From assembly GCA_903908595.1 (NCBI GenBank), contig CAIVSN010000144.1, positions 1,167 to 65,166 on the forward strand: DNA of 64,000 nt, given 5' to 3'. Each line of letters opens with the position of its first letter. Position 1 is the first letter of the stretch. The translations under genes were made by a program, and so were the position numbers. Below the pieces are notes generated by a model. It made no database searches. It saw only the letters and a program-made list of their open reading frames with translations, and was not told the DNA's origin. Shown one piece after another: positions 1 to 64,000 of the stretch. Origin of the DNA: an uncultured bacterium (GTDB lineage: Bacteria; Patescibacteriota; Gracilibacteria; BD1-5; UBA2023).

Positions 1-1
1 G

Positions 2-79
2 GTTCGGCAGATGGAACAGAAGGTCCTGGAAAAAATTCGGAAATGCCCCGGGATAGAAAAAATCCGGAGCGTGTTCTAG
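2..79 (+). CDS. C-terminal ~25 codons of an unidentified CDS entering from upstream of the window
   Basis: Frame is open from the window edge to TAG 77-79 (...VRQMEQKVLEKIRKCPGIEKIRSVF*). No family recognised; it may be non-coding. Confidence 0.2.
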   Translation, partial: VRQMEQKVLEKIRKCPGIEKIRSVF

Positions 80-194
80 GCGGCATATCCAGCGGGGTTT
101 CAGAAAAATACCCCGGCAGACCACCAGGGAATTCAGAAAAACGATAAAGCTTTCCCTGGAAAAATACGACATCGTTTCTCCCGGCAGGCCACCA

Positions 195-316
195 GGGAAT
201 TCGGAAAAACGATGAAATCCGAAGCCGAATTCGAGTACCGTAGCGAGGCGTACCGATAGGTACGTTGAGCGAGGAACGCAGAATTCGGCAAGGAGTTCGC
301 GTTTTGCCGAATTCCC
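195..316 (-). repeat. Copy 1 of a ~120-nt structured post-CDS element: conserved core CGAACTCC..CCTCGCT..hairpin..CCTCGCT..TTCGGATTTCATC, with copy-specific inverted arms
   Basis: Arms GGGAATTCGGAAAAACG (195-211) / CGTTTTGCCGAATTCCC (300-316). Middle stem GCCGAATTC/GAATTCGGC. Apical hairpin CGTACC-GATA-GGTACG. Ends 1 nt from the pilB stop. Confidence 0.85.
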
Positions 317-317
317 C

Positions 318-1685
318 CTAGTCGATCACGGAGAAGACTTCTTCCAGGCTGGTCTTTCCCCGCATCGCCTTGAGCACGCCGTCTTCCCGCATCAGCATGA
401 GGTCGTTCTTCCGGGCTTCGGCCATGATTTCCACCGGGCTCGCGCCGCTTCGGATCATGGCGCGGATGGTATCGCTGACGTACAGGACCTCGTAGATTCC
501 CATCCGGCCCTTGTATCCGGAATACCCGCAGCGATCGCACCCGGTGGAACGGCTGAGCTTGAAGCCCCGTTTGTGTGCCTTGGATACCGCTTCGATACCG
601 ATATCCCGCATCATCCAACGGATAATGTCGTTCTGCGACTCGTCCGCTTGGTAGGTCTCGATGCAATGGGTACACAGCCTTCGGACCAGCCGCTGGGCGA
701 TAATGATGTCGATGGCGCTCGAAAGGATGTACGGCGGAAGCCCCATGTTCAGCAGGCGTTCCAACGTTTCGGAAGCGGACTTGGTATGGAGGGTGGAGAG
801 TACCAAATGCCCCGTCAAAGCCCCCTGTGCCGCGGTATTCGCCGTCTCCAGATCGCGGATTTCCCCGATCATGATGATATCCGGATCCTGCCGCATCAAC
901 GCCTTGAGCCCCGAATGGAAATTATACCCGTTCTTTTCGTTGACCTCGGATTGCACGATGCCCGGCAGCTCGTATTCGATGGGGTCTTCGAGGGTAATGA
1001 TTTTCCGGGTGGGGATGTTGAGATCCTGCATCATGGAATACAGGGTGGTGGTTTTTCCGGATCCGGTCGGGCCCGTGACGAGAATCATGCCGGATTTCTT
1101 GTTGAGGCTCTTGTCGATCTGCCTTTTGGAAGTCCAGATGAATCCGAGTTCTTCGACCTTGGGAATCGACTTGGTCGAATCCAACACCCGGCAGACGACG
1201 TTTTCCCCGGTGCGTACCGGAAGCGTCGAGACCCGAACGTCGATATGCCCGTCCGCTACTTCCGTGATGCGGTATTTCCCGTCCTGAGGGATGTTGGTGA
1301 TGTTCAGCTTGAGTTCGGACTTGTATTTGAGGCGTTCGAGCAGGAGCTTGTATTCCGGCCGGGACAGCCGGAGGACGGTAGCGAGGGATCCGTCGATCCG
1401 CATCCGGATCTCGGCTTCCGTTTCGGTGACGTCGTAGTGGATATCGGAACTTCCGAGCCCGAGCGCCCCCTTGGTAAGGAGAATCAGCGCCGTTTCCGAA
1501 TCCTGCGCGAGAAGCGACTTGTGGAGGTGCCTTTCGAGTTCGGCGAATTTTTCCTCCAACCGGACATGGGTCTCGCTGAGAATCGCGGTTTTTACTATGC
1601 GGAATTCATTATCGTTCTCGATGGGAATGGGAAGCGGTTCGACGGGTTTCGGCAGAACGCGCGGGGGGTGGGAAAAATCGGTCAT
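318..1685 (-). CDS. pilB: Type IV pilus / type II secretion assembly ATPase (GspE/PilB family)
   Basis: Walker A GPTGSGKTTTL, MRQDPDIIMIGEIRDLETA, C-terminal Cys cluster CTHC..CDRCGYSGYKGR. Start chosen at ATG 1683-1685 (MTDFSHPP); the longer ORF to 1967 would overlap the divergent RNHCP gene. Stop TAG. Confidence 0.9.
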   Translation of the reverse strand: MTDFSHPPRVLPKPVEPLPIPIENDNEFRIVKTAILSETHVRLEEKFAELERHLHKSLLAQDSETALILLTKGALGLGSSDIHYDVTETEAEIRMRIDGSLATVLRLSRPEYKLLLERLKYKSELKLNITNIPQDGKYRITEVADGHIDVRVSTLPVRTGENVVCRVLDSTKSIPKVEELGFIWTSKRQIDKSLNKKSGMILVTGPTGSGKTTTLYSMMQDLNIPTRKIITLEDPIEYELPGIVQSEVNEKNGYNFHSGLKALMRQDPDIIMIGEIRDLETANTAAQGALTGHLVLSTLHTKSASETLERLLNMGLPPYILSSAIDIIIAQRLVRRLCTHCIETYQADESQNDIIRWMMRDIGIEAVSKAHKRGFKLSRSTGCDRCGYSGYKGRMGIYEVLYVSDTIRAMIRSGASPVEIMAEARKNDLMLMREDGVLKAMRGKTSLEEVFSVID

Positions 1686-1760
1686 GGCCGAATCATACCA
1701 TATTTCCGATTGAGTTGCAAAAATGGAGCGTCCGAATAGCATCGGCATATGGGATTTGTC

Positions 1761-2158: not shown

Positions 2159-3100
2159 ATGGAAACCTTGCCGAACATCATCCGGGAAAAATGGCAGCGG
2201 TACGAAATTGCCCCCGAAGATACCGTCGTGCTCGGGGTTTCTTGAGGCATCGACAGCATGGTGCTGCTGGACCTGGTCGCGCAGGCGCACCCGGCCGGAA
2301 AAATCGTCGTCGCCCACGTCGATCACGGCATTCGGGAAGCCAGTGCCGGGGATGCGGAATTCGTCCGCGCGAAATGCTCCGGATACGGAATCTCATTCGA
2401 ATGAACCCGCGTGGATATCCGGGAAATCGCCCGATCGGGAAAAACCAGCGTGGAAGCCGCGGGAAGAACGGTCCGGTACGGATTTTTCGAGAACGTCCGC
2501 GCCCGGTCCCAGGCGAGATTCGTCATCACGGCCCACCACCGGGACGACAGCATCGAAACCGTGCTCATCAATCTCATCCGGGGCGCGAGGCTGCGCGGGC
2601 TCTCGGGCATGGCCGAACGGCAGGGCACGCTGTTGCGGCCGCTCTTGGAAGCAAGCAAGGCGTCGATCCGGTCCTTCGCGGAGACGCGAGGCATCGCATA
2701 TCGGGAAGACTCCACCAACGCGGATTCCCGGTACGTTCGCAATCGGGTACGGAACGATATCCTTCCGCAGATGGAAGCCATCAATCCGTCGGTACGCGAC
2801 ACGCTTGCCGATTTTGCCGAATATGCCGGAAAACTGGACCGCATGGTCGAAGGCCTGCTCGCCGTGCACCTCTCGGGGAATTCGATTCGCGAGGAAGATT
2901 TCGCGAAGTTGCCGGAACTCCTGCGGCTCGCGTTCGTGGAAAAGATCTATGGGGCAGCCAACGGGGGTACCATCGGGCTTTCGGCCGGAAACATGGAGGA
3001 GATATGCCGGTTCATCCTGGAAGCCCGTGGCGGTACCGTCAAAGAACTCGGGAAGCTCCGGTTAGAGAAGCGGGGAAGGAAAGTGGGGTGGGGTGACTAG
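2159..3100 (+). CDS. tilS: tRNA(Ile)-lysidine synthetase
   Basis: Joins ORF tail 2159-2245 with ORF 2411-3100 in the same frame. PP-loop reads VLGVS[TGA]GIDS = SGGxDS (TGA 2243-2245); second TGA 2402-2404. Downstream HHRDDSIETVLINLIRG, TilS-like. Stop TAG. Confidence 0.9.
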
Positions 3101-3388
3101 AGAGACCCTGTCGAAATGCGAACTCCTTGTCAATTTTTCCGCTCCTCGCTCTACGTATACCCAAAAGGAATTGGTTTCCCGGTTTTTCCAGCCTCATCTT
3201 CGGACATCTTATATTTTTTTCTTCGGTCACTTATTCCCGATAAGCTCCCGGAAGAAGAAAAATAAAACCTGTTCCGAATCTGTGACCGTAAAACACCGAA
3301 AACCAATTCCTTTTGGGTATACTTGCCAGTACGTTTCGCTACGGTGCTCGAAATTGACTTCGGATTTCATCATTTTGCCAGGGTCTCT
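3101..3388 (+). repeat. Copy 2 of the structured post-CDS element, carrying a nested insertion in its apical hairpin
   Basis: Arms AGAGACCCTGTCGAAATG (3101-3118) / CATTTTGCCAGGGTCTCT (3371-3388). Middle stem AAATTGAC/GTCAATTT. Starts at the base after the tilS stop. Confidence 0.8.
3158..3319. repeat. ~162-nt palindrome-ended insertion nested inside element copy 2
   Basis: 20-bp terminal inverted repeats TACCCAAAAGGAATTGGTTT (3158-3177) / AAACCAATTCCTTTTGGGTA (3300-3319), plus inner CGGTCAC/GTGACCG. It interrupts the 3' arm of the apical hairpin present in the other copies. Confidence 0.7.
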
Positions 3389-4592: not shown

Positions 4593-7500
4593 CTATTGCG
4601 TCAGGATTCCGTAGCTCGTGGAGTACGAACCTCCGGCACCCGCAGGGATCTTGTAGAATACGTCGATGAAGAATTGTCGTCCTCCCGTTGAAGCGTCGGC
4701 ATCCATGCCGTTCACGCTCACGCTCGAACCGTACGAATTGGTAACGTCTACGGCTGAACCGGAACCGGTTGCGTAATCGGCAACCCCGTCCTGGGAAACG
4801 ACCATTCGGGTATTCGTTGCCGCAGCGAGCGTTCCGATCCCGTTTGACCAGTCGGCCAACTTGAAGGAAGCTCCGGTCTGGGAGAACGAATTGGCCGTCA
4901 CGGCGAACCGGAAGTGGTATCCGTTGGTGTAATCACCGGAAACCACGGGATCCCCATGGGGTATCCGGGCAATGTTCGTGATGGCGATACCGCTATTCGA
5001 TGCCGCCGTCTTGAACGACATCGGAACGGAATTGACGGTCTGGCCATTCACGGCAAACCGAACCTGGTAATAGTACGTCGTGTTGGCGGCAAGTCCGGAA
5101 ACCGTAGCCGGAGAGGTGGCAAGAGTAGCCCAAGTACCAGAGTAGGCGAGCATGGAGATTCGGTATTCCTTTACCGTAGGCACCACGTCGGTAGCGTACG
5201 TGATTACGGCGCTAGAATTGGTAACCGTACCGACGGAGAGTCCCGTAATATCCGGGGCGCTCGCGGATTGCGTCGTGAAGTAAACTTCCCGATCGCCCGT
5301 TACCACGTTCCCTGCGGCATCTTGGAGAGCTCCGGAGAGCACCGTGATCCGGTAGGAAGTCGAGTATTCGAGCGTTCCATATGGAACGGCAAGGGAATTC
5401 GTCGTTACGGAAGAAGTGCCGGAAGACACGTCCGAAAGATCCGAAGCCTTTCGTACCAATACCATCGCAGCGTCGTTCAATACGAGAATTTCGTCATAGA
5501 CCAACGATGCGTTACCGCTAGAAACCGAAACGGCGGTTGCGGCATTCGTCGGAGCGGAAGATACGAAGCTCGGAGCCGCGGTATCCGCCGGAGTATCCGC
5601 GTTTACCTGGTAGGCAACGGTAAGGGAGGCAGTATGCCCGGTCGTGGAAACCACTTCGATGACATACGCGTGCGCTCCTAGGGTGGTAGCCCCAGAGAGG
5701 GTGGCGACGGTGACGGTTGAGCCGGTGGCGACGGAAGACCCGTTGACGGTCGCGGTAGCCGCGCCGGACATCGTGACCTGGAGGCCGTTAGAGAACCGGG
5801 AAGCCGCTTCCGTTGCCGTGTACGCGGAAACGATGGACGCTCCGGAGAGGGTGACGGTCGGGGTTACGGGAGTGGCCACGTCCGCGTTTACCTGGTAGGC
5901 AACGGTAAGGGAGGCGGTATGCCCGGTCGTGGAAGTCACTACGATATTGTACGTGTGGGCTCCAAGGGTAGTCGCCCCGGAGAGGGTAGCTACGGTGACG
6001 GTTGAGCCGGTGGCGACGGAAGACCCGTTGACGGTCGCGGTAGCCGCGCCGGTCGTGCTGACCTGGAGGCCGGCGGAGAACCGGGAAGCCGCTTCCGTTG
6101 CCGTGTACGCGGAAACGATGGACGCTCCGGAGAGGGTGACGGTCGGGGTGACTATGGCAGTAGAAGCCGTAGTTTTGACGGCATACACCTTTGTTCTTTC
6201 GTTTCAAGTCGAATCTTTTACCTTGACCTGCACGTAGTAGACCGTGCTTGCCGTCAGTCATCCGGGCATGGAATTGGTCTTTACGGCAGTCGTATACGCT
6301 CAATCATAGGCATTAATTCAAAGAACGCCGGTAATTGCCGCATCCGAAGCGAAGGTAACTTCCATATCGAACGCTTCATCCGCGCTTACTACGGCATCAA
6401 ACGAACTACTGGTAATGTTAACGAAAGACGCCTCTTGGTTTGGAGCTCCCACGTCGGCATTGCTCAAAGTTTTCACCGTATATACCTTGCTTCTCGTATT
6501 TCAGGCACCGTTTGCCAAATCGCTAACGATGACTCTGACATAGTACAGGGTATTTGGGGTCAACGATCCTATGGTATCGGTCGTTGGAGTCGTACCAGTA
6601 ACGTTGTTATACGCAGCCGTTTGATCGACGGAAACAAAATTCGAAACGGTATCGACATCGACCCGTACGTCAAACGAATCGTCAGCCGTCGTTATCACGT
6701 CAAATCATGTAGCGGATATGTTGTTGAAACTTACATCCTGATCTGGCGCAGTGGTATCCCCCGGAGCGTCTGCATTGACTTGGTAGGCAACGGTAAGGGA
6801 GGCAGTGTGCCCGGTCGTGGAAGTCACGACGACGCTGTAGGTATGTGCTCCGAGTGTGGTAGCTCCGGAGAGGGTAGCTACGGTGACGGTTGAGCCGGTG
6901 GCGACGGAAGACCCGTTGACGGTCGCGGTAGCCGCGCCGGTCGTGCTGACCTGGAGGCCGGCGGAGAACCGGGAAGCAGCTTCTGTTGCCGTGTACGCGG
7001 AAACGATGGACGATCCGGAGAGGGTGACGGTCGGGGTGACGGGGGTTACCGTGTCCGCGTTGACTTGGTAGGCAACGGTAAGGGAGGCGGTATGCCCGGT
7101 CGTGGAAGTCACGACGACGCTGTAGGTATGCGCTCCGAGTGTGGTAGCTCCTGAGAGGGTAGCTACGGTGACGGTTGAGCCAGTGGCGACGGAAGACCCG
7201 TTGACGGTCGCGGTAGCCGCGCCGGTCGTGCTGACCTGGAGGCCGGCGGAGAACCGGGAAGCCGCTTCCGTTGCCGTGTACGCGGAAACGATGGACGCTC
7301 CAGAGAGGGTGACGGTCGGGGTGACGGGAGCGACGGCAGAAGTTACGTGAACGGTAATGCTGGATGTATCCCCCCATACGTTATTTGCCTGAGCGGAAAA
7401 GTATATGGTGTAAGTACCCCCGGTCCATACTAGGGTGCTCGGGCTAACGGTTGCCGTGAAGTTTTCGTATTTTGAGTCAGTGAGAGTTCCGTCCGAAGGA

Positions 7501-10500
7501 GTCACGGCAATTCCTCCCGAAGGAAGACATGCCGTTCCCGAATTCACGGTTCCGATACAGTATTTTACGGTGTCGAAGTTATTCGACGGGCTAACGGCAC
7601 GACCGGCGATAGCAAAGCTCGTTGTCCCGGTTGTAATGGACGAATCATTGAGGGTGAGCCCGACTACCGTTGGTCCTCCTATAATCCCCTGATTCGTTAC
7701 CGCCGCAAGCTCCATGGTGTTTGCGTCCTTGACTTGCCCTCCTCCGTTTGGAATGGAGAGCCGGTCGGTAGCGGTATTGATTCCGCCTGGAATCGTTACC
7801 CGAATCAGCTTGTTCGTTGCGCCAAAAGCAAGGTTTGAAGGATTCACTCCCGCTATCGTGAAATTTGCCAGATTCGTAATCGATGACGCGTGCATAAGTT
7901 CCGTGAACTCGACTTCCGCCACAGTGGAAGAAAGGAGGTACGAAGTAACATACAGGGGCACGACGTTATCCGTTGCAGTTCCATCGAAATTCGTTCCGTT
8001 TGCCGCCGCCGCGAGTCCTTTCGCAACCGTGTTGTCCGCAGCGTCTTTTATTCCGGCGTGATTTGTCTGTGATATGATTGCATCAACGGTTTCTCCGCCG
8101 TTGTACGCGACTCCTTGCGTTACGTAGAGTTTTACCGTCGAACCCGTAAGCTCTCCGGCGTTTGCATAAACGAGGGGCTGAGCATTCGGCGCAGGATTGG
8201 CGAATGACCAGTTCCCCGCCGTAAACGTACCCGCGGAAACGTCTTCGGAATAGGTAACGACGAGCGCATCTACGATACCGTCGCTCGCGGTCTCTCCATT
8301 TTCTCCGGCGTCGGAAGTCTTAACAGTCAAAACTACTGGATCGGCATCGTCCGTCACGGCGGAGACTCCCCCAAAAGTAGCTACCGCGTTATTTGCGGCA
8401 TCTTCGAGGCTATTCGGCGTATTTCCATTCGTGTAGGTCATTCCGATAGTTCCAGAAGAACCGGTTTCTCCGGCATCTAGGGACGTAAGGGGAACGGTCA
8501 TGGCATTCGTAGTGAAGCTAACCGCCCCAACCGAACCGGCTCAAAGCGAACCGTATGCGATACCCCAGTCTCCCGCTTCGTAAGAACTCGCGGAAATATC
8601 CTCAGAAAAGGTATAAACGAATCGGTCAACTTGACCATTCCCATCGGAATCCTGGAATTTTCCGGAAGTGACTACCGGAAGCGCCTTGTCAGCGATGGAT
8701 TGATCTCCGTATCCAGCAGCGCTGTTATGGAGCGTTGCCGCGTCTTTTACGGTACCTCATGTGAAACTTACCTTCAATGCGGCCGTCGTCTGATCCCCAT
8801 CGGCCGTGTCGAGATTCAACGTTATCGTATCGGTAGTAACGCCAACGGAAGATACGTCAATGGAAGTCGACGTTCCGTCCAATTCGACGAGATAACTTCC
8901 CGTGTTCGTGCTTGCGGCACCGGTTCCGGATACGTCCTCCGAGAATTTCAACGCCATGGTGGTAGTTTTCCCCGAAGCGTTTCCCATGGTCTTCGTTGCC
9001 GCATGGGCAGTAAGGAGGCTTGGATCGGCATTGTCGGTAGCGGCAATGGTAAATGTCGCAACGGCATTGTTCGCCGCGTCGTTCAACCCTCTTGAAGCAT
9101 CGACAAAGTTATCCGTATAGGTGATTTGTGGATTGGTTGCTCCGCCGGTAACATCGGCAGCTCCAAGAATATCGATAGCAAGGACACGGGAAGTAGGAAT
9201 GCTTGTCGCCGATTCGTTCGTCAATGCAACGGTTCCGGCAACGGCGGTCGTATAGTCTGCCGCATCGTATCCGTCGTCTTCGATATCTTCCGAGAACGTG
9301 ATGTCTACCCGGTCGACTTGGCCGTCGAAATCGCTATCTATATAGGTAGACGTGAGCGCGAATGGCGCAACTCCGTCCGTTTGGACGGAAGTAGATGCAA
9401 GGGCAACCGCCAGATTGGACGCGCTGTCGGATGCGTGCGTGGTACCGCCGGTAGAATATGCCACCTTCATCTTGCTGGTATCATTGTCCGTATCGACCTG
9501 ACTCAACGAAAGGACCGCTATGGAAGCGTCACCTCCGTCAAGCGCCACTCCCGAAACGTCGACGGCCGTGTCAAGCGAATTCTTCACGGAGAAAGAATTG
9601 GCGCTGGGCGCGATAGAAAGCTCTTCCGAGTATTTCACCTGGACGCTTTTCGTCAATCCGTTTGGAGCGACATTCGGAACGGTCGCGGTCGCGACGTCCG
9701 TCATGAGGGCTACCGGAGACGCCTTGTCGAGGGCATTCACCGCAACATAATCGACGATGGTATTGGCAATGGTTGCCTTGTCCTGGATATCCGGATCCGT
9801 TGGGCTATCCCCCGTATACGATACGGCCGGGGTAGCGCTTGTATCAGGAGTTCCGCTTTCTACGAGGCCCAAACAGATATAATCGCTGTCCGCGGTCCTT
9901 GTGGCTGCGCCGGAACAGTCGGCAGCGGCTGAAAAAGCCGTAGCGAACGCACCGACGGTGAAATCGTTGGCTCGAACGCCGTCATCTTCTATGGCTTCTG
10001 AAAATTTTACGTATAAAGCGTCGATTTGCCCATTGCCGTCGAGGTCTCTCGTCTCCGTATAGAGAATGGAAGGATTCGCCGCATCGGTAATGCCGAGATC
10101 GCTTACTGCGGCACCGGAATTATCCGATGAGCCGGCCTCGTCCTTAATGATGCCTCCGGTATAGGAAACCTGGAGCTGTTTCGTCGTCTGATTAAGGTCT
10201 GCTGCCGAGAGATTCAAAGTAACCGTGCTCGTAGTCCTGTTTACGGAAGTAACGACGATACCGGTAGCGGTTCCCGCTATCTCGACGGTATAATCGCCAA
10301 CCGTATTGCTGGAATTTGCCGAAACGTCTTCGGAATACTTCATGGCAAGAGTGGTGGTCTTTCCCACTCCGTTATCGTTCGTTATAGTAGTCGCGTGAGT
10401 CGAGAGAAGCAAGGGTTTCGCTCCGTCAGTAGACGTTTTGGATGCGAAAGACGCGAGGGGGTTGGAATTGAGATCGTCGACGAGCCCAATCTGCTGTATT

Positions 10501-11990
10501 TTTAGGGTGTAATCCGTCTTGTCGGCCGAAAGGGTTTCCGTACCGTCGGCAACGCCTATATATATGACGCTGTCATTTGCGACGTCTATGGCGTTCCCCG
10601 TACTTGGGGTAAGCGACGAGAAAGATTCGATAAGATTTACTCCGGTAGTATCCGCGATACCCACGGCATAATCCGTAGCGACGACCGTCGAATCCTCCAT
10701 CGCTTCGGAGTAGGTTATCTTTACGTAATCCACGACCCCGTCGTTATTGTTGTCGAGGGTCACGGAAGAGAGATACTGGGGAGCGGCTCCGTCGTTGTTT
10801 CCTGACCCAGCGTTATAAGCGATGGTTTGTGAAGCGGTAGTTGCCATTCCGTTCATGTCGGTAACGGATCCGGAGAGCTGGACCCCCTCCTTATCGGTAC
10901 CGACTAACTGGCCCGGTCCCATGAGCGTAACGTATTCGTCGTCTGCGGCATCGGTATAACCGTGCAATGGCGCCGCTTTCTTCATAAGGGAAACCGGGTA
11001 GGTTCCTCCTGCGTCATCATCAGCGGAGAAATCGTCGTATCCGGTTATGCTGGCGTCGCTGATCGGCTCAGAGAACATAACGTAAATTTCATCGTTGCGA
11101 CCGTCTTGTCCAGCCGTAGGGCCATTATCGGTAGTCGCGTCGTAGTTCGTTACGGAAACCATAACGGGCACGGCAGCGTCTATGGAAGCGTTGGTAGCAT
11201 CCGAAATGACGGCATTTCCCTGAGAATAATTATCCGTCAGGCTTCCGGCAGCATAGGCTACGTTTGGCGTAGCGTTCGTATCCGGTCCGATCTCGTCGAA
11301 ACCGATCACGATGATGTTGTCGTTCTCGTGATCGCCCGAAACGGTTTCCGCGGGAACGAACGTTGGATTCACGTATCCCGTCACGGTAAAATCGCTCGCC
11401 GTAACGCTGGTATCCTTGATATTGGCGCTGAACGCGTCGGCAAATGTGATCTTTACGGCATCGAGCTGGCCGTTGAGGTCCCGGTCGAGGGTATGGACGG
11501 CGGATATGGTCGGCGCGGTGTTGTCAATCCCAAAAGTAATGGCCGGTGTCAATGATCCGGCTCCGCCACCGGTAATTATTACCCGGCTCTTATAGCGGTT
11601 GGTAGCAGATTCGATCCTTGCAGTGGTATCCCAAGTAAGGGTATAGGAATTCGAATTTACACCAGGACTGACTTGGGCAAATTGCTGATACGCGCCATCA
11701 TCGGTGAAATCCGCGTTATTGTTCGCATCGTATAAGTAATACCCGGTAATAACTGCTCAAATATCGCTACACGTATCTCCGGGAGTGACGCTTACGTTGT
11801 AGCTATAGGCATTTCATCTTATCGAAGCGCCCGATGCCGGACCGACGTCAGTAAGGGTACATCCTCCGATAGCATTCGCCACCGGCACCAAATTCACAAT
11901 TCCAAAAAGCGATTGGGTCATAATCATCGTGACCAGCGATATGCCCGCAACGATTCTTTTTGAAGTTGTCTTTATTTTTAATAGAGCCAT
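4593..11990 (-). CDS. Giant (2,465-aa) secreted repeat-rich surface protein with Ig/FN3-like modules and Dx[DN]xDGxxD Ca-binding-like motifs
   Basis: ORFs 8757-11552, 6705-8501, 6501-6698 and 4593-6188 share one frame. They join through 10 TGAs (11814, 11757, 8757, 8541, 6705, 6501, 6318, 6300, 6258, 6204). N-terminal signal MALLKIKTTSKRIVAGISLVTMIMTQSLFGIVNLVPVANA from ATG 11988-11990. Stop TAG. Confidence 0.8.
5598..6152 (-). repeat. Tandem pair of ~273-bp (91-aa) near-identical coding repeats inside the giant gene
   Basis: VTPTVTLSGASIVSAYTATEAASRFS.GLQV...GHTASLTVAYQVNAD occurs twice. The DNA is nearly identical to the pair at ~6768-7325. Boundaries approximate. Confidence 0.8.
6768..7325 (-). 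repeat. Second tandem pair of the same ~273-bp coding repeat
   Basis: Same 91-aa unit twice. Long identical runs, e.g. GGTGACGGTTGAGCC.GTGGCGACGGAAGACCCGTTGACGGTCGCGGTAGCCGCGCCGG, are shared with 5598-6152. Boundaries approximate. Confidence 0.8.
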
Positions 11991-12305: not shown

Positions 12306-12992
12306 TTAAAAAAACCGCCTGACGATGAAAAAAACCGAAACGAGCCCGAAGAGCAACAAGACGCCCATGAAAGCCATCCCCGGAAGCGATTCCCAGAAAT
12401 CCAATTGTTGCCTCGAGGCTCATTTGAGCGAATCCGAAGCGGCGGAGCCGTTCGAAACGTCCATTCTGCCGCCGATGGAACCGAACGTGGAACCCATATT
12501 CCTTTGCGGAATACTTGCCGAATCAGAGATGCTCTTGGACGATTCGGATTTTTCCATTGTCTGGTCGAATGCGGGCGCACCGGGGGACATTCCGGGGCTT
12601 GGGTTTGGGATTGACCGGGTTTCTTCCGACAAGATGGCCGGAGCGTACGTCGCCTGATGGGTCTCCGAGTTTTTCACGGGACTCCCAAGCCATCCGTACA
12701 TGCCGAATCCTACCGTCAGGAGCAGACAGAAGGAAAGGGCGAGACGGAAGTACGGCAGGGAATATTTCGAGAAAAACGGACGGCGGACGGGATAGGTTTC
12801 GTCATACGTTTCCAGCAATTCGCTTTTTAGGCCGCTACGGAAATCCGCGTCGATTTTTACGGGCGATTCGGACTTGGATTTCAGGGCGTGGAAGATCTCC
12901 CCGTACTCCCGGACTTCGGAAGACAGGGGCTCTCCCCGTTCGCATTTTTCCAAAATGCGCTGGAGCCGGTCGAAATCGATAGGGGGGTTCAT
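12306..12992 (-). CDS. Putative anti-sigma factor (single-pass membrane protein with a second C-terminal hydrophobic segment)
   Basis: ORF 12420-12992 extended through TGA 12420-12422 to TAA 12306-12308. Start lies 1 nt after the ECF sigma stop. TM segment LPYFRLALSFCLLLTVGFGMYGW. Function inferred from position only. Confidence 0.6.
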
Positions 12993-20233: not shown

Positions 20234-20572
20234 TTATTGGATTTTGTGGATGAGGGCACGGAGTTCTTGGGCGAACCGGCTCGCGCATTCCGCGTCCTTT
20301 CTTTGGAGTACGGTTCACTTCTTGGCGACGAAGACGATATCCCCGGAGACGTTTCCGAGATATTCCCCGCAGATATCGTACAGCATCCTCCGGAAAAAAT
20401 TCCGGTCGACGCTGGTTTTTGCCACCTTCCCGGACAGGATAAGGGCAAATCGCGGATATTCAAGCCGGTTTTGCGCGACGTTCGCCACCAGGATACTCGA
20501 AAAGAAAGGTTTTTTACGACGTAAAACCTTTCCTATTTGAGCTTCTTTGAGTCGATATCGTTTTGCGATCAT
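20234..20572 (-). CDS. rnpA: Ribonuclease P protein component
   Basis: MIAKRYRLKEAQIGKVLRRKKPFFS..; ORF 20315-20572 extended through TGA 20315-20317 to TAA 20234-20236, giving 112 aa (canonical size). Sits between rpmH and yidC. Confidence 0.85.
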
Positions 20573-26578: not shown

Positions 26579-26582
26579 AAAA

Positions 26583-45775: not shown

Positions 45776-45822
45776 GGAAATGAGAAAATGATTTAGTGGA
45801 CATCCGCAGGTCTGTATCACCC

Positions 45823-45949
45823 CCGGAAACCCCGAGAAAATGATGAAATCCGAAGTCGGTTTCGAGCACCGGAGCGAGGCGTGCTGGCAAGCACGTTGAG
45901 CGAGGAGCGGAAAAACCGACGAGGGGTTCGCATTTTCTCGGGGTTTCCG
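45823..45949 (-). repeat. Copy 4 of the structured post-CDS element (between sufS and sufU)
   Basis: Arms CCGGAAACCCCGAGAAAATG (45823-45842) / CATTTTCTCGGGGTTTCCG (45931-45949), 19 bp perfect. Middle stem GTCGGTTT/AAACCGAC. Apical CGTGCT-GGCA-AGCACG. Confidence 0.9.
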
Positions 45950-45953
45950 CATT

Positions 45954-48242: not shown

Positions 48243-48369
48243 CTTGGAATCGCGAGAAAATGATGAAATCCGAAGTCGGTTTTGAACACTGCAGCGAGGC
48301 GTGCTGGCAAGCACGTTGAGCGAAGAGCGGAAAAATCGACAAGGAGTTCGCATTTTATCGCGATTCCAA
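48243..48369 (-). repeat. Copy 5 of the structured post-CDS element (between sufB and the sufA/D fusion)
   Basis: Arms CTTGGAATCGCGAGAAAATG (48243-48262) / CATTTTATCGCGATTCCAA (48351-48369). Middle stem GTCGGTTTT/AAAATCGAC. Apical CGTGCT-GGCA-AGCACG. Confidence 0.9.
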
Positions 48370-50646: not shown

Positions 50647-52260
50647 TTATTTTATCCAAATGATACCGGATTGATTATCATATGATCAAGCGCCCGAAAT
50701 ATCAAATCGCATTCAATTCTCAGTACTGTAGGTACTATACCCAAAACGTTGTCAAAAATTACTATAGGCGGTCGGCAAATATTGAGTACCGTCGAAGTAT
50801 CACGATACATCGGTTCCCGCGGCATTCGTTTCCGCATTGTTCAGTGTCGAATACACTGTACATAGGAACGATCCCGCACAACTTCATCCGGAATTCATTC
50901 GGAGATCCGTAGGCCATGTTTTGCCGCTCGTCCTGTGATACCAATCGGAAGCGGATTGGTCGGATCGGACCAATTTCAAGACGGAATTCGTTCTGGAACT
51001 TATGGCATTCAAATCCGCAGTACTCATCCTTCCGCTCGTTCCGAACGTTTTGTTCACTATACTGCTCAAATTGCAACCATTTGAATTGTTGTAACACGCA
51101 GCCCCCATATTCCCGTTCGTGATTTTGAAGGCAAGCGACCACCCTCCGCCATCCGAAGTCATATCGCAGTAAGCCTTGAAACTGCTGGTACCAGTAGGAT
51201 TTATCCAATATACGCCATCGCCGGTATCTCCGGTATACAGTTTCGGGGCGGACGGATTCTTGTATGAGAAGCAACTCGTAGCATACGTCCCGTCCGCCCA
51301 ATTCCTTCATGTAGTGTCGTTTCCGGAAATATATCCGCTTGCCACGGGGACGATCAATGGGGAAACCGTGCTTGTTCCTCCGAGATGCCCGACCAACATG
51401 CTGGTGCCATAGGTCGCGAGGGAACCGCTTGACAGGGAAACGAGCGTCGCGATGTTCCGGTCGGACCTGAGGTCGCTTCAGGAATACGCGTTCTGAAGCA
51501 TCGTCATCATCGAGGAAATCTCCGAGTCCGTACTCGGAAGCTTGGCTCAAGAGAACACCACTTGGGCAGGGTTGAACCCACTCGCGTTTCGAAGCGCCTT
51601 CCCATTGAAAAGGAGGGTACCGGAAAGCGAAGCCACGGGCACGGGAGCCCCATTGGTGGTCCCGCTGTTCGTAACGATGCTCGGGATCGCGAGAACATAG
51701 ACGCTGCTCCCCGTGGTCGTTTTCGCGGTAAGTCCCCCGAAATTCCCACGGATGTAGGCCGTCGCCGGATCTCCCTCTGCGGCGAATGCGGATTCAACGA
51801 GCAAGTTTCCATTCATAGCCGCTTGGTTCATATCCCCTTCACATTCCGCCTTGATCTGGTAGGCCTTCCCTTCCGCGAGAGTGGAATACGTATATTCGGA
51901 ATGCTTCAATGGATCGACGGGTTTTGTTCCCAATCCCCCTCCCGGAATGGTAGCTTTGAAATACTGCATGACGAGCGGTCCGATAGTTCCCTGATTCCAG
52001 ACGGTTCCCCCGGAATATGTCACGGCAAACGAATTATCGGGAAGCGGGTATGATCCGGAAGTGACGATGGCAAGATCCAAAGATTTGGATACCTGTGCAA
52101 TGTCCCCGATCCTCGCCGAATCCCGGGCTTTGGACGAATACCCGCCGATAGCGAGAAACCCGATGGATCCAAGTATCGCAAGAATAGTGATTACTACGAT
52201 AAGTTCTACGAGAGTGAATCATTTGATTTTCCTCCGGAAGGGATATTGCCTTGTACACAT
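50647..52260 (-). CDS. Type IV pilin-like protein fused to a C-terminal fibrinogen-related (FReD-like) domain (537 aa)
   Basis: MCTRQYPFRRKIK[TGA]FTLVELIVVITILAILGSIGFL, with TGA 52219-52221 as the Gly(-1) of the prepilin site. Nine TGAs in total. Tail: ATSCFSYKNPSAPKLYTGDTGDGVYWINPTGTSSFKAYCDMTSDGGGWSLAFKITNG. Stop TAA 50647-50649. Confidence 0.8.
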
Positions 52261-57394: not shown

Positions 57395-57511
57395 AACCCT
57401 CTCGAAACGATGAAATCCGAAGTCGATTTTGAGCACCGTAGCGAGGCGTTCATTGGTACGGAGAGCGAGGAGCGCAAAAATTGATGAGGAGTTCGCGTTT
57501 TGGTGAGGTTC
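57395..57511 (-). repeat. Copy 6 of the structured post-CDS element (most degenerate arms)
   Basis: Core conserved (GATGAAATCCGAAGTCGATTTTGAGCACCGTAGCGAGGCG...GAGCGAGGAGCGCAAAAATTGATGAGGAGTTCGC). Right arm CGTTTTGGTGAGGTTC is almost identical to the copy 3 arm. Lies 40 nt after the pilin stop. Confidence 0.75.
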
Positions 57512-57551
57512 TTACGATGAAGAGACAGAAGTGACGAAAGCGTCGAATACC

Positions 57552-59474
57552 CTAATTCTTGAGGCAACGGAGCGAGAACCCGTTCCCACGAGTATTTGAA
57601 TACGCGATATTGCCGCCGCCGGAGGAGAAGTCTGCGATGTAGGAGTTCGGGGAATACGGAGACGACGACCAGTAGTAGCCGCCCGACCCCTGATTGTAGT
57701 AGTACCCATTAATCCAATGCCGGTACCCGGCAAGGGGGAGCTTGAGCGCGCACCGGGTCCGGTCGTACGCGTTCGCCTGGTTGCAGGAGCCGAAAGCGGC
57801 GTTCGAATTGACGATGGCGTAGAGCGTTCCCCATTGGGTGGAGGTATCCGACGTTCCGCCGGTCGGGATATGGTATCCGGACGGGCAAGGTCACTGGGCG
57901 TCGCCGCCGTTGCCGGCGTTCCATCCGCCGGACGGGTTTGTGGCCCCGGCCCATTTCCAGTCGCCATAAAAGGCTTCCCCCTGGTAGAAGTTCGGGGTTC
58001 ACGTGGTATTCGCGGGCGACGTGAGCGTCCCGCCGTACTGGCTGGCCGTCCAAGTCCCGGAAGTGACGATGTCGTTGCGCCCCCACTGGTAGTAGTTGCC
58101 CTGGACGGCCGCAACCCGGTTGATCGGCAGGGCTGACGCGGTCGCGGTCGGGTTCGGCGACTGCGCGGGAACGGCATCGTACCCGGCCGAGGTCGTGGCG
58201 CCCACGTTGCAGGCGGCCCAGATCTGGACGTTGTCGGTGCCCTGTTGCCATACGGCGATATCGTTGGTATCGCAGGACGGATCGGACTTCGTGCCGCTCG
58301 TGCCGATGCCGGCGGCGGTTACCGTGACGTTGGTTCCGCCGTAGGAGAACTGCTGGGATGGCGCGTAGGTAGTGGCGGAAGCGTATGCTGGAGCCATCGG
58401 GGTCGGGGTTCCGCTTCCCCCGCTCGTCGTCGCTTTCCCGCCGAGCTGATTGGACACGATGGCGGTGCCGAAGCTTTGGACGGCGCCGGTGCCGGTGGCG
58501 GAGAGGAGGGACGCTACGTTCGTATTGGAGATTACGTCAGAGCCGGAGTAGGCGGACTTGAGGGCCGTCACCATGGCGGTGATCCGGCCGTCCGCGTCGC
58601 TTGCCGGAAGCCCGCCGGTGCCGGAGAAGACGACTCCGCTGTTCGCGCGGGCGTTGGGATTGTAGGAAGAAGCGTTCTGGAGCGGCTTGCCGTTGAAGAG
58701 GAGGGTGCCGGAGAGGGCGTTCTGCTCGATCCGGAGGAGGTTTCACGCCCCGGTCCCGCTGTTGGTGATAATGCTGGGTATCGCGAGGACGTAGGTGAAG
58801 GAACCGGTGACGGTCTTGGCGGTGAGTCAGCCGTAGTTGCCACGGACATAGGCGATAGTGGGGTTGCCGGCTTCGGCGGAGGCGGTCGGAAGCAAGGGAT
58901 TGCCGGCTTGGTCGGAAGCGGTCGGGACGAGCGGGTTGCCGGCTTGCCCGCCGTCCCGGTACGCCGTGGGATTGGGGACGTCGTTCTCGTAGTCGGCCTT
59001 GATCTGGTAGGCGGTGCCGAAAGCGAGGGAGGAGTAGGCGTATTCGGAGTTTTTGAGGGGGTCGGTGGGCTTGTCGTTGATACCGCCGCCGTTCACGGTA
59101 CCCTTGAAGTACTGCATGACGAGGGATCCGACGGTTCCTTGGTTCCAGACGGTCCCGCCGGAATAGGTGACGGCGAAGGAATTGTCCGGTACCGGGTAGG
59201 TACCGGCGGTGACGACCGAGAGGTCGAGGGACTTGGAGATCTGGGCGACGTCGCCGACGCGGGCGGAATCGCGGGCTTTGGAGGAGTATCCGCCGATGGA
59301 GAGGAAGCCGATGGTGCCGAGGATGGCAAGTATGGTGATGACTACGACGAGCTCAACGAGGGTGAAGCCATGGAAGGATTTTTTCTCGGGTTTCGAACCG
59401 TGGGCAATCCCAGTGGCATGGGAAGCGCGAACGGTTGCGGGGACGGATGCGTTGGCATTCTTTGTGGGTTTCAT
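57552..59474 (-). CDS. Type IV pilin-like protein fused to a C-terminal FISUMP-like (Fibrobacter succinogenes major paralogous) domain (640 aa)
   Basis: ...KKSFHGFTLVELVVVITILAILGTIGFL. ORFs 58827-59681 and 57999-58574 joined with the tail through TGAs 58827, 58743, 57999 and 57891. Tail: NYYQWGRND...[G]PCPSGYHIPT...LKLPLAGYRHWINGYYYNQGSGGYYWSSSP...GFSLRCLKN*. Confidence 0.8.
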
Positions 59475-59620
59475 GGGATTTTTGGTAAGGAAAGTACTTG
59501 GGGAACCGGAGGGCGGGGCGTTCGGCGAAACGAAAAAACCCCAGCCGGGAGCGGGAGGGCCACTGGCGGGGGAGTTCGGGGACGCGTGAAAGACGGCGGA
59601 TCCGGGACAGATCGCTACTC

Positions 59621-59907: not shown

Positions 59908-61044
59908 ATGTTTCCCCGATCCCTCTCTCAAAAAATCACCTCCAAATACCATCTCGGAAAGATCATCATGATTCTCGGTCCGCGCCAAGTAGGCAAAACC
60001 ACGCTCGTGAAAACGCTCTTGCAAGAAATCCCGGATTCCGACAAAATTTTTTTGACGGGCGACGACTCCGACGACCGGGCCCTGCTGTCGAGCGAAAGTT
60101 TTGCCAAAGCCGATCGCAGTATCGGCTCGGCAACGTATGTCGTCATCGACGAATGACAAAAGATTCCGAATATCGGGAACACGCTCAAACTCCTCGCCGA
60201 CCGGTACGGGAAAACCAAACAGCTGTTCGTAACGGGGTCGTCCAGCGTCCACCTCCTCGACCGCACCGACGAGCCCCTGACGGGAAGGAAATTCGTATTT
60301 ACCCTCTTTCCGATATCCGTTGGGGAATACGCCGAAAAATACGGGATTCGCGACACGGAAAAGGAGCTCGAACCGGAGCTGTTGTACGGCATGTATCCCG
60401 AAGTCCTCGAACTGCCGGATATCGCGGACAAAATCACCCGGCTGATGGAATTGTCCGAAAGCTGACTCTATCGGGACATTCTCGAATTCCAGGAAGTGCG
60501 CAATTCCGCCGTCATTCACAAGCTCTTGGAATTGCTCGCGCTCCAGATCGGCAGCGAGGTTTCCTACCACGAACTCGCGACGCAGCTGTGAATGAGCGCC
60601 CAAACGGTCGAACGGTACGTCGACCTCCTGGAAAAAAGTTTCGTAATCTTCCGCCTTTCCCCGTATTTCACGAACAAGCGAAAGGAGATTTCGAAAATGA
60701 AAAAAATATATTTTTACGATTTGGGGATCCGAAACGCCCTCATCCGATCGTTCAACCCGCTCCGGATCCGATCCGACGTCGGCGCGCTTTTTGAAAATTT
60801 TTGCATCGTCGAACGCATGAAACACCGGCAATACTCGGAGAGTTTGGCCTATCCGCATTTTTGGCGGGGGGCGCAACAGGAAGAAATCGACCTGATAGAA
60901 CTGACCGGCACGGATATCCGCGCGTTCGAAATCAGATACCGGCCGCAAAAAATCAAGGTACCGAAAAAATTCTCGGACCTCTACCCCCTGGCGACCTACG
61001 AAATCGTCTCGAATCAAAACTATGTGGAATTCATCTCGGGTTAG
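59908..61044 (+). CDS. AAA-family ATPase with a C-terminal DUF4143-like domain
   Basis: Walker A GPRQVGKTTL, Walker B YVVIDE[TGA]Q. TGAs 60154, 60463 and 60589 (ATQL[G]MSAQTVERYVDLLEKSFVI fits the lGis..Tv..Yl motif). Stop TAG. Confidence 0.75.
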
Positions 61045-61123
61045 CACGAAAATCCCGAAAAATCCAGTTGAAGCCGGCCGATAATCGCGTATACTCCCGT
61101 TTTCAACCGTAACCACTCCCCCC

Positions 61124-62569
61124 ATGGACTTTCACGAGCTCTCCATTCTCCAAATCCAAGAACTGATCGCCGCCGGCAAAACCACCGCCGCGGACGTGTT
61201 CTCCCATTTCAAAAAACGCGCGGAAGCGCTCAATCCGAAGCTAAACGCGTTCGCGACGATCGCGGACGCTCCCGCCGCTTTCACCGGGAAAGGTTCCCTC
61301 GCCGGCATTCCCCTCGGTATCAAGGAAGTGTTTTCCCAGGCCGGGGTCCGTACCAGCGCCGGCTCCAAAATCCTCGAAAATTTCAAGCCGCCATATACCT
61401 GCACCGTCGTGAACCGGCTCAAGGAATCCGGAGCCGTCAGCCTCGGGACTTGCAACATGGACGAATTCGCCATGGGATCGAGCGGGGAAAACTGCGCGTA
61501 CGGCCCCGCCCGCAATCCCTGGGCGTTCGACCGGGTACCCGGAGGTTCGAGCTCGGGATCGGTCGTGGCCGTGGCCGCGGGCTTGGTCCCGGCCAGCCTT
61601 GGGACGGACACCGGGGGTTCCATCCGGACTCCCGCGAGCCTCTCCGGCGTCGTCGGATTCAAGCCGACCTACGGGCGCAACAGCCGGTTCGGCGTCATTG
61701 CCATGGCCAGCTCCCTCGACTGCCCCGGCACGTTCACCCGGACCGTCCGCGACGCGGCGACCATATATGAGGCAATGGCGGGAAACGATCCGATGGACTC
61801 CACCTCCCTCGACGCGCCGACCGCCATCGACCCGGGCATTTGGGACCGCAAGGACCTCAAAGGCGTCCGTGTGGGAGTCCCGAAAGAATACTTCCGGGAT
61901 GGCCTCGATGCCGGAGTCCGGGAGCAGGTCCGGAACGCCATTGCCAAAATGGAGGAACTCGGAGCGGAAATCGTCGACATAACCCTCCCGAACTCCGAAT
62001 ACGGGATCGCGGTCTACTACGTCATCATGGCCGCGGAAGCGAGCACCAACCTCGCCCGCTACGACGGCGTGCGGTTCGGGCACATCTCCGGGGACGGCGC
62101 GGACATCGCGAAAAACCGGGCCGAAGGCTTCGGCCCAGAACCCACCCGGCGCATCATGCTGGGATCGTTCGTGCTTTCGAGCGGATTCTACGACGCCTAC
62201 TACAAGAAGGCTTCCCTCGTCCGGGAACTCATCCGCGACGACTTCCTGCAAGCGTTCGAGCAGGTCGACGTCATCGTCGGGCCGGTCGTTCCGACGGTTG
62301 CCTGGAAGATCGGGGAAAAGGTCGAAGATCCCCTCAAGATGTACCTCGCGGACATCTATACCGTGCCTCCAAGCCTCGCCGGGATTCCCGGGCTTTCCCT
62401 TCCGATCGGCTTTGCCAAGCCCGAAGACGGATCTGGGGATGCGGTCGAGCTTCCGGTAGGGCTCCACATGCTCGCCGGGCATTTGCAGGAAGAAAAACTC
62501 TTCATGGTAGCCCACGTCCTTGAGGAGGCGATGGCAGAATCCTTGCAAGGCAAACAACCGAACGCATAA
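61124..62569 (+). CDS. gatA: Asp-tRNA(Asn)/Glu-tRNA(Gln) amidotransferase subunit A
   Basis: Amidase signature GGSSSGSVVAVAAG..GTDTGGSIRTPAS; 481 aa. Confidence 0.9.
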   Translation: MDFHELSILQIQELIAAGKTTAADVFSHFKKRAEALNPKLNAFATIADAPAAFTGKGSLAGIPLGIKEVFSQAGVRTSAGSKILENFKPPYTCTVVNRLKESGAVSLGTCNMDEFAMGSSGENCAYGPARNPWAFDRVPGGSSSGSVVAVAAGLVPASLGTDTGGSIRTPASLSGVVGFKPTYGRNSRFGVIAMASSLDCPGTFTRTVRDAATIYEAMAGNDPMDSTSLDAPTAIDPGIWDRKDLKGVRVGVPKEYFRDGLDAGVREQVRNAIAKMEELGAEIVDITLPNSEYGIAVYYVIMAAEASTNLARYDGVRFGHISGDGADIAKNRAEGFGPEPTRRIMLGSFVLSSGFYDAYYKKASLVRELIRDDFLQAFEQVDVIVGPVVPTVAWKIGEKVEDPLKMYLADIYTVPPSLAGIPGLSLPIGFAKPEDGSGDAVELPVGLHMLAGHLQEEKLFMVAHVLEEAMAESLQGKQPNA

Positions 62570-62570
62570 C

Positions 62571-63461
62571 ATGGGCTTCCTTTCGGCATTTTTCAGCGGC
62601 GGCGTGGGGTTCGGGGTACTCTCCGCGCTCATGGGAAGCACGTCCACGATATTCTACCGCAAAGCCATTGCCATCTGGCCGTACGGGCGGAGCTCGTTCG
62701 TGCTCTTCGGGAACTGGATCGGCACGATGATGGCCATTGGAATCCTCCTGTTCGGCAACGTCAATTGGGGCCCGGATATCGAATGGTACGTGGTTCCCGT
62801 CTTCCTGATCCTCGCCTTCAGCATGTTCCACAACGGGAACCGGATCATGGAACTCAACCGTAACGAAAAACTCTCCACGCTCCAGATTTTCGGAAACATC
62901 GCCACGATTCTCACGATTGTCGCGGGATTTTTCCTGTACGGCAAAACTTCGGTCTATACCTTGGGAATCGCCATCCTCTGCGGGGCCATCCTCTTCGGAA
63001 CGCAATTCTTCGAAGGCGGCGGATTCTGCCCCCCAAAGAATTGGAAACCCATCGTTACGACCTACTTGATCGGCGGCATCCAATCCCTCGCCATCGTCTG
63101 GATGGTGGCGAAAATAGGATACGTGGGCTATTTCGTCATCAGCTCCTTCGCTGCCACCATTACCGCCGTCATGGTGCTGCTATTCCAGAAAAAAATGGGT
63201 GAGGCCTGGCTCGGCACCCGGCAATTCTACGTGTATCGGACGGTAGACGGAGTCATTTTCAATTCGGTCCGTTTCATCTACTTCTTCCTCGTGGGAAGCC
63301 TCGGGCCGGTAGTCACCACGCTGCTCGGAATGATCGGCAACATCACGACCCTGATTTTTGGCCGGTTGTTCCTGGGCGAAAAAAACAGCGCGAAAGAATG
63401 GGGCATCAATATCCTCCTCTGCGTGCTCGTGGGGTTGGGATTTTATTTGAAAGACCGCTAG
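62571..63461 (+). CDS. Ten-TM membrane protein, possibly a DMT/EamA-like permease
   Basis: ATG 62571 lies 1 nt after the gatA stop. Two similar five-helix halves by eye. Family assignment weak. Confidence 0.55.
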   Translation: MGFLSAFFSGGVGFGVLSALMGSTSTIFYRKAIAIWPYGRSSFVLFGNWIGTMMAIGILLFGNVNWGPDIEWYVVPVFLILAFSMFHNGNRIMELNRNEKLSTLQIFGNIATILTIVAGFFLYGKTSVYTLGIAILCGAILFGTQFFEGGGFCPPKNWKPIVTTYLIGGIQSLAIVWMVAKIGYVGYFVISSFAATITAVMVLLFQKKMGEAWLGTRQFYVYRTVDGVIFNSVRFIYFFLVGSLGPVVTTLLGMIGNITTLIFGRLFLGEKNSAKEWGINILLCVLVGLGFYLKDR

Positions 63462-63648
63462 AATCGAGCTCGCCCGAACGTATGCCTAAGCAAATTCGGT
63501 TTTCCCCTCCGGCACCTGTGCGGATGCGGTCGATGGCATACGGATTTTCCCCGGAATCCCGACGGTTTTCACGATTTTAAAAATAAATTTGCCTTTTATA
63601 ATTTTTTGCCTTTAATCCGAATCCTATCCAAAAAAATATTTTGAAATA

Positions 63649-63840
63649 ATGAACAACATCCAATGGAAATTCGGGTATTCCCCACGGGAAGTGGAAGCCG
63701 AATTAGCAAAAAAACGCCGGGGAATGGAGCCGTTCAAAGAGGGCGTCAGGACGAGGGTGGAAAATGCCATCCATGCGCCCGGGAGCTTTTCCGCGTCTCC
63801 CGGAGTGCGAATTTCCTCCGCTTCCTCCAAAAAAAGATAG
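63649..63840 (+). CDS. Small hypothetical protein (63 aa)
   Basis: ATG..TAG ORF. No family recognised; an overlapping antisense ORF is equally long. Confidence 0.3.
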   Translation: MNNIQWKFGYSPREVEAELAKKRRGMEPFKEGVRTRVENAIHAPGSFSASPGVRISSASSKKR

Positions 63841-63925
63841 CCGGCCGGAACCTTCCGAATCGAAATCGCCAACCGACGAATGGCGATTTTTTGGCGAAAT
63901 CGGCACGACGTGGTATACTGGGGCG

Positions 63926-64000
63926 ATGAAAAACCGATATCAGGATCGACTGCCCGACGGAACCGCCGTATACCGGAAATCCGGGGGCGCGGAGTACGAT
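63926..64000 (+). CDS. 5' end of an unidentified CDS running off the window
   Basis: ATG 63926 lies 7 nt after TATACT (63914-63919). MKNRYQDRLPDGTAVYRKSGGAEYD... Confidence 0.3.
   Translation, partial: MKNRYQDRLPDGTAVYRKSGGAEYD

Follow-up and report, generated by a model that had tools for sequence, protein, structure and literature searches.

UGA is very probably read as glycine in a 64-kb stretch of a relatively GC-rich Gracilibacteria-type genome

We analyzed a 64-kb stretch of DNA from an uncultured bacterium (positions 1,167 to 65,166 of contig CAIVSN010000144.1, assembly GCA_903908595.1; the whole stretch is hereafter called the window), in which many genes are crossed by in-frame TGA triplets that had been proposed, from the letters alone, to be glycine codons as in genetic code 25. 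The window has a guanine-plus-cytosine (GC) content of 54.0% and is free of N. Open reading frames (ORFs) of ≥150 aa delimited by TAA or TAG numbered 253 and were spread over six frames; as such long ORFs arise by chance at 54% GC, the fusion of ORFs across TGA is insufficient evidence when taken alone. Genes were called with a codon model trained on 12 seed genes, chosen by visual inspection of translations and conserved motifs, and then iterated, with the stop triplets left unscored. Greedy longest-ORF calling and the first self-trained codon model were rejected, as they settled on antisense shadow frames at some loci, those of TilS and PyrG among them. The final model called 56 coding sequences (CDS) covering 84% of the window. 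In-frame TGA was found 107 times in 31 of them, with one more at 1794 in an RNHCP gene; the original prediction had counted about 115. The TGA at 26347 and 26338 probably precede a start codon.

Three essential genes are among those crossed by TGA. The gene for tRNA-Ile lysidine synthase, TilS (2159-3100, +; Pfam PP-loop match at residues 23-199), has TGA at 2243-2245 in the SGGxDS motif, which reads VSgGIDS (g denoting a TGA-encoded residue), and at 2402. That for CTP synthase, PyrG (40921-42522, +), has a single TGA at 41974-41976 in the PGGFG motif (IPgGFGERG), and its product aligned end to end with CTP synthases in the PDB (residues 2-526, E = 1e-165). In the RNase P protein, RnpA (20234-20494, -), the Pfam Ribonuclease_P match at residues 3-84 spans the TGA at 20315, and three relatives likewise have TGA at this codon. 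An RNHCP-domain CDS (1749-2078, +; Pfam RNHCP residues 7-92) has its TGA at 1794-1796, at the CxxC-G position (CRACg...RNHCP). The ZIP metal transporter (20995-21717, +) is crossed at 21364 and 21484, both within the Pfam Zip match (residues 87-234) and both also TGA in the nearest relative, JAVHRB01 (locus L002). PDB searches with the ZIP and RnpA proteins gave no matches.

Five type IV pilin-like paralogs, sharing an N-terminal methylation motif and a conserved region, are found at 16123-17571 (+) and, on the opposite strand, at 23517-25301, 27214-28248, 50647-52230 and 57552-59495. Their N-terminal ~200 residues are common to all five, and up to ~300 residues are common to four. The C-terminal modules are, respectively, a SPRY domain, a Cys/Tyr-rich region, none, a Fibrinogen_C-like domain and a Fib_succ_major-like domain, the last being a weak match under the curated Pfam cut-off (24.5 vs 33.9 bits); to judge by sequence, this variety suggests swappable adhesin tips. 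The SPRY-bearing paralog contains 13 TGA (16189 to 17533), eight of which are spanned by the Pfam SPRY match at residues 344-459, and 16189 aligns with Gly in 4/4 paralogs; under table 11 this gene is broken up, giving fragments of 22, 246 and 25 aa along with smaller ones. In the second paralog (Pfam N_methyl), TGA occurs at 25050-25052, 23961, 23700 and 23574. The first of these, in WNQGTVgPLVMQYFKG, corresponds to Gly in three paralogs and to TGA in a fourth, and the paralog near 59 kb, to which this motif had been compared, reads WNQGTVGSLVMQYFKG. The third (Pfam N_methyl) has TGA at 27973 and 27964 (WNQgTVgT), where the paralogs have Gly, or in one case TGA at 27964, and further TGA at 27304 and 27259. 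The fourth (Pfam Fibrinogen_C) has nine, including 52219-52221 at the Gly(-1) of the prepilin cleavage site (KgFTLVEL); this site aligns to Gly in the paralogs, where the Gly(-1) codon is GGG (25290) or GGC (28204), and to G, G and A in relatives. In the fifth (Pfam N_methyl), TGA at 58827 and 58743 align with Gly in 4/4 and 3/4 paralogs, and two more lie at 57999 and 57891. PDB alignments of the SPRY region were too weak for scoring single columns, and those of the fibrinogen-like domain ended before its TGA sites.

A giant repeat-rich surface protein of ~2,450 aa (4593-11954, -) contains ten TGA (11814, 11757, 8757, 8541, 6705, 6501, 6318, 6300, 6258 and 6204); it has the top coding score in the window, positive across each TGA, and a repeat pair picked out by eye, SFTxGTVKD and SYTGGIIKD, suggests Gly at one of them. 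The same gene holds four tandem repeat units of 285-300 nt (5572-7329, 84-86% identity), and inspection of the translation by eye showed numerous repeated domains bearing FN3-like motifs. In a protein with Pfam VIT and VWA_3 matches (13577-15910, -), the TGA at 14348 is GGA in the JAVHRB01 ortholog (locus L002). Four tandem T4SS-pilin-like genes (TrbC/VirB2-like, Pfam T4SS_pilin; 32482-34318, -) include two with N-terminal Gly/Ala-rich tracts, in which 11 TGA (32908 to 32860, 34184 to 34148, and 33815) belong to repeat units of either GGA GCC or TGA GCC, so that GGA and TGA interchange inside a perfect hexanucleotide repeat, (GGA GCC)n, in two genes. The SBP_bac_5-like protein (Pfam SBP_bac_5; 35039-37558, +) has six TGA, of which 35330, 35654 and 36509 are GGC, GGT and GGA in a relative (locus L003), the others being 36770, 37148 and 37418. 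In a TPR protein (42588-43466, -), the Pfam TPR_19 match at residues 4-53 spans TGA at 43374 and 43353 (FRgRILSRLgKYEEA), both of which we take to be Gly positions of the general TPR motif, and two more follow at 43176 and 43107. Finally, an ATPase with Pfam AAA_14 and DUF4143 matches (59920-61044, +) is crossed at 60154, 60463 and 60589. In two homologs these columns hold A/V (in DE[AV]Q), Y/Y and G/G, respectively, only the last being a conserved Gly, and to go by its sequence this accessory ATPase may be undergoing decay or have diverged to an unusual degree. The five TGA that the original prediction had quoted with coordinates were all recovered in place, and its TPR and SPRY strings were present and fall within the corresponding Pfam matches.

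Reading through TGA yields continuous homology. Single Pfam or PDB matches cross TGA uninterrupted in PyrG, TilS, RNHCP, RnpA, Zip and SPRY, and AAA_14 and DUF4143 appear as two adjacent matches in one product. Under table 11, 32/56 CDS were interrupted, as expected from the prediction that a standard-code ORF track would be fragmented here, and in public gene calls for identical DNA the ATPase gene appears as two, AAA_14 of 82 aa and DUF4143 of 150 aa. All 56 CDS end in TAA (30) or TAG (26), as had been claimed, and none needs a TGA terminator; this is partly by construction, ORFs having been delimited by TAA and TAG, and independent support comes from a frame test blind to the three stop triplets and from the scores of segments past TGA. 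Among 11,288 confidently coding codons, that is, those where one frame wins clearly, the blind test found 47 TGA, 2 TAA and 1 TAG, the off-frame frequencies being 1.2% for TGA, 0.41% for TAA and 0.35% for TAG. The coding score past TGA was positive for nearly all segments. The DNA itself was recovered in an independent assembly, ENA ERZ18659389 of sample BUCK21-1_SAMEA6872936, whose scaffold_7519 is 100% identical over 3,989 bp (window 60012-64000) and reaches 1.4 kb past the right window end, and the same strain was therefore present in that sample.

The residues found opposite TGA in homologs point to glycine. The TilS PP-loop column (2243) was Gly in 4/4 PDB TilS/TtuA alignments, and DNA-level reading of standard-code genomes gave Gly in 77/77. 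At the PyrG column (41974), 80 related loci had GGN in 71 cases and TGA in nine, and the T. thermophilus structure has Gly. The CxxC-G column of RNHCP (1794) was Gly in 82/105 homologs; three of the 105 database homologs had Trp, possibly because Gracilibacteria TGA had been auto-translated under table 4. Of 14 TGA sites alignable to relatives' DNA, nine had a GGN majority, four were also TGA in a relative and one was Arg. A query with the SPRY region, covering 10 TGA sites and three homologs, gave a Gly majority at five (including YYgY and NFgATAF) and small residues at three. Among the pilin-type paralogs, 24 TGA sites had informative partners, with Gly in the majority at 11 (46%) and Trp at none; as a control, GGN sites had a Gly-majority partner in 71% of cases and no other residue exceeded 12%. 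The enrichment for Gly that the original prediction expected in family alignments was therefore strong, with Trp essentially never seen, but not every TGA sits at an invariant Gly, as several are found at variable columns. The TilS locus scan, from which the 77 standard-code sequences came, returned no close relatives that would have supplied orthologs of the giant and SLH proteins.

The converse comparison gave the same answer. In-frame TGA of relatives faced GGN in the window in 738/948 cells (78%), against a Gly background of 9.6%, and faced Trp in five cells (0.5%); the test is independent of annotation, and the fraction was unchanged with alignments made under table 4, 11 or 25. In a small Codetta-like tally of 1,355 conserved columns all sense codons were standard, with CGG at Arg in 30/32 columns, CGA at Arg in 6/6 and TGG at Trp in 15/16. 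The change of CGA and CGG to Trp proposed for Absconditabacteria is therefore absent from the window.

We next consider the lineage and its decoding apparatus. Among GTDB contigs with one genome per species, the best GatA and PyrG matches were metagenome-assembled genomes (MAGs) labelled "Patescibacteria group" and Candidatus Gracilibacteria, with JAVHRB01 (isolate auto_43_30) nearest at 85% identity in GatA and 91% in PyrG; placement in the UGA-recoded Gracilibacteria/Absconditabacteria clade is thus by best hits and tree-free. GatA hits above 52% identity and PyrG hits above 56% were nearly all from Gracilibacteria-type MAGs with in-frame TGA in the orthologs, whereas PyrG orthologs at ≤55% identity (Peregrinibacteria and others) were without TGA, with one exception (locus L216). 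A tRNA with anticodon UCA was first found in one relative's locus. Run against 596 Gb of genomes, a pattern built from it matched 76 times; 72 of the matches were one conserved 76-nt tRNA in Gracilibacteria-type MAGs, with an encoded CCA, U73 as the discriminator and the pairs G1:C72, C2:G71 and G3:C70. These acceptor-stem pairs and U73 are the Gly identity criteria of Shulgina and Eddy (PMC8629427). The carriers include JAVHRB01 (locus L110) and cousins of 57-60% GC at 74% identity (loci L103, L115 and L155), so that the lineage of the window is bracketed on both sides. Two of the relatives' loci contained RF1 (release factor 1) with its PxT motif, and ~3 Mb of relatives' loci, a weak sample, showed no RF2. 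In the BD1-5 genomes examined previously, prfB is absent and prfA present (PMC6851277), and UGA was shown by proteomics to be Gly in a BD1-5 bacterium (PMC4032931).

Two side observations concern these genes. The RF1 gene of one Gracilibacteria relative (locus L030, ~4011, +) is itself crossed by an in-frame TGA, which falls on the Gly of SGVHRVQR. The remaining four of the 76 pattern matches are of 71-73 nt and have an ordinary tRNA-Gly body (GCGGG...CCCGCU) with anticodon UCA, in MAGs of standard-code phyla, namely an Akkermansia MAG (L086), Gemmatimonadales (L101), Deltaproteobacteria (L120) and Alphaproteobacteria (L137); natural suppression of UGA, carriage of the tRNAs by phages or contamination of the bins could account for them.

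Together, we regard it as very probable, from the sequence evidence, that the window derives from a Gracilibacteria-type (Patescibacteria/CPR, candidate phyla radiation) genome with genetic code 25, in which UGA is Gly and UAA and UAG are the sole terminators. UGA would be decoded by a dedicated tRNA-Gly(UCA), RF2, which would recognise UGA, would have been lost, and UAA and UAG would be handled by RF1, as relatives and the literature indicate. As the original prediction had recognised, the reassignment of UGA to Gly is already known biology for Gracilibacteria and Absconditabacteria, and our results agree with the published accounts (PMC8629427, PMC4032931, PMC6851277). All of the checks carried out among those put forward with the original prediction spoke for it.

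Several observations weigh against this interpretation. Neither tRNA genes nor release-factor genes were found in the 64-kb window, and a metagenome scan with the clade tRNA for a copy from the source genome returned 69 contigs, all of ≤42% GC and hence none from the species of the window. A few C-terminal segments past TGA scored weakly negative; these are C-terminal domains of odd composition in pilin-like genes and one segment in a doubtful short CDS (12319-12792). In the pilin paralog alignments, conserved Gly was rarer at TGA sites than at GGN sites (the 46% vs 71% given above), and UGA-Gly therefore tends toward less conserved Gly positions. Some columns do not hold Gly at all: that at 2402 in TilS is variable (K, S, L and others), that at 17227 in SPRY is I/V/L, that at 47589 in a SufD-like gene is R or K, and that at 60463 in the AAA_14/DUF4143 gene is Tyr in 2/2 homologs compared, in an SYLxRD context. 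As judged from these alignments, such columns fit substitution by Gly at tolerant positions in accessory genes, and not another amino acid.

The same data bear on other readings of TGA. Were the standard code in use, the TGA would be real stops, and the interrupted genes would be pseudogenes, errors of assembly or sequencing, or ORFs that fuse by chance because the DNA is GC-rich. Long TAA/TAG-free ORFs do arise by chance in six frames here, and the weakly negative segments would also fit, but it is TGA alone that interrupts coding frames (47 vs 2 TAA and 1 TAG), the essential PyrG, TilS and RnpA would be cut within their domains, and an independent assembly has the identical sequence. Moreover, four TGA are conserved as TGA in relatives and the remainder are mostly GGN there, and we consider this explanation very improbable. 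We give equally little credence to code 4, in which UGA is Trp, as in Mycoplasmatales and several insect endosymbionts. Trp was the majority residue at none of the TGA sites in the window and appeared in just 5/948 reciprocal cells, the TilS, PyrG and RNHCP columns hold Gly, and Trp columns were occupied by TGG alone (15/16). Fusion of the ORFs would follow just as well from code 4, the relatives' tRNA(UCA) is not assigned to Gly by ARAGORN, and Trp does occur at the TGA column in 3/105 RNHCP homologs; however, U73 together with G1:C72, C2:G71 and G3:C70 in the clade tRNA(UCA) are identity elements for Gly, not for Trp (criteria of PMC8629427).

ARAGORN labels the relatives' tRNA(UCA) as tRNA-SeC, which would favour insertion of selenocysteine at UGA. 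This reading we hold to be the least credible of all, given ~107 sites in 31 genes with Cys the majority partner at none, a 76-nt tRNA that fits the general tRNA model and has an acceptor stem of 7 bp and a variable loop that is short, and the absence of any selenoprotein family or selenocysteine machinery among Pfam matches in the window. An ambiguous or context-dependent UGA, read mostly as Gly with appreciable termination or misreading (for example as Trp, by near-cognate pairing) and purged by selection from core genes, is unlikely, if less so than the preceding three. In its favour are the scarcity of TGA among housekeeping Gly codons (1.7%, compared with 10.0% in pilin/surface genes), the lower frequency of TGA than GGN at conserved Gly, and the rare non-Gly peptides reported at UGA in a BD1-5 bacterium (PMC4032931). 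Nevertheless, no CDS needs a TGA terminator, and the bias between gene classes also follows GC content at third codon positions (GC3; rho = -0.39), just as the TGA share across relatives follows genomic GC (rho = -0.67); mutational bias therefore explains much of the gene-class pattern. UGA as Gly under code 25 accordingly stands as the preferred reading.

TGA accounts for 6.6% of the Gly codons in the window and is very unevenly spread (chi-square p = 7e-11), with a concentration in pilin, surface and accessory genes. Housekeeping genes have 8 TGA among 465 Gly codons and pilin/surface genes 73 among 727 (Fisher p = 2e-9), making TGA about six times rarer in the former, and many core genes are free of TGA, among them PilB, RNase J, GatA, SufB/C-like and YidC. 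The drop of the TGA share with rising gene GC3 within the window is mirrored among relatives, where the share in PyrG and GatA drops with GC: at 22-23% GC most Gly codons are TGA, and at 58-60% GC the number of TGA is down to 1-2. The shift between close relatives is large, as the JAVHRB01 loci (L002 and L158) have ~44% GC compared with 54% in the window, and PyrG has five TGA in JAVHRB01 compared with one here. It is conceivable, though we think it doubtful, that UGA-Gly is in retreat in this GC-rich branch (54% vs 44% GC in a sister at 85-91% protein identity), nearly purged from housekeeping genes and from the Gly positions that are most conserved, and surviving mainly in fast-evolving pilin/surface genes.

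Compared with known recoded systems, the window differs in nothing essential from NCBI translation table 25 (SR1/Gracilibacteria): UGA stands at Gly columns, termination is by UAA and UAG only, the nearest relatives are Gracilibacteria and these carry the clade-typical tRNA(UCA) with Gly identity. A GC range of 0.21-0.53 was listed for the table 25 clades in 2021 (PMC8629427), which puts the window, at 54%, just above it, and public code-25 relatives at 58-60% GC also use TGA. UGA is a minor Gly codon here, in contrast to relatives at 22-23% GC, where it is the majority Gly codon in PyrG. For Absconditabacteria (SR1), UGA as Gly has been accompanied by a proposed reassignment of CGA/CGG to Trp (Shulgina and Eddy, 2021, PMC8629427); the window shares the former, whereas its CGA and CGG are Arg. 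In table 4 organisms (Mycoplasma/Spiroplasma and insect endosymbionts) UGA is likewise a sense codon, but the amino acid is Trp rather than Gly, and the lineage of the window is that of a CPR bacterium whose relatives' tRNA has Gly identity and whose DNA is not AT-rich. Loss of RF2 is ascribed to both the table 4 and the table 25 groups.

Several repeats and duplications were also observed. A duplicated block at 25609-27391 contains two paralogous 'tail-collar-like' genes that are rich in TGA and have no Pfam hit (repeats D7, D8 and D10, 81-94% identity). Within it, a 178-nt copy of the 3' end of the third pilin gene (27214-27391) lies at 26388-26565 with 93% identity and both TGA kept. Three tandem paralogous small genes, to which no function was assigned, lie at 39073-40791 (+) and have a common DNA block of 80-88% identity (repeats D4 and D11). 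A palindromic intergenic repeat of 120-130 nt, resembling repetitive extragenic palindromes (REP) or miniature inverted-repeat transposable elements (MITE), occurs in at least six copies, at 197-314, 45828-45945 and 48248-48365 on the forward strand and at 21719-21836, 3322-3387 and 57456-57515 on the reverse strand. For one of them (45820-45950) the predicted fold is a single long hairpin (-75.9 kcal/mol, z = -9.2), and the window as a whole gave no Rfam match.

For the interpretation of this DNA the choice of code is decisive, as the original prediction had argued. Annotation under table 11 truncates or splits 32/56 genes, including the essential PyrG, TilS and RnpA, and ruins the domain architectures of pilin and surface proteins, and all other findings in the window are to be read under table 25. 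One further, relatively GC-rich lineage would thereby join the well-documented recoding of UGA to Gly, without sharing the reassignment of CGA/CGG. If UGA-Gly is retreating because selection acts against a codon that is costly or ambiguous, and not through GC drift alone, closely related lineages of differing GC would offer a natural test of how a codon disappears and, possibly, of how a reassignment is reversed.

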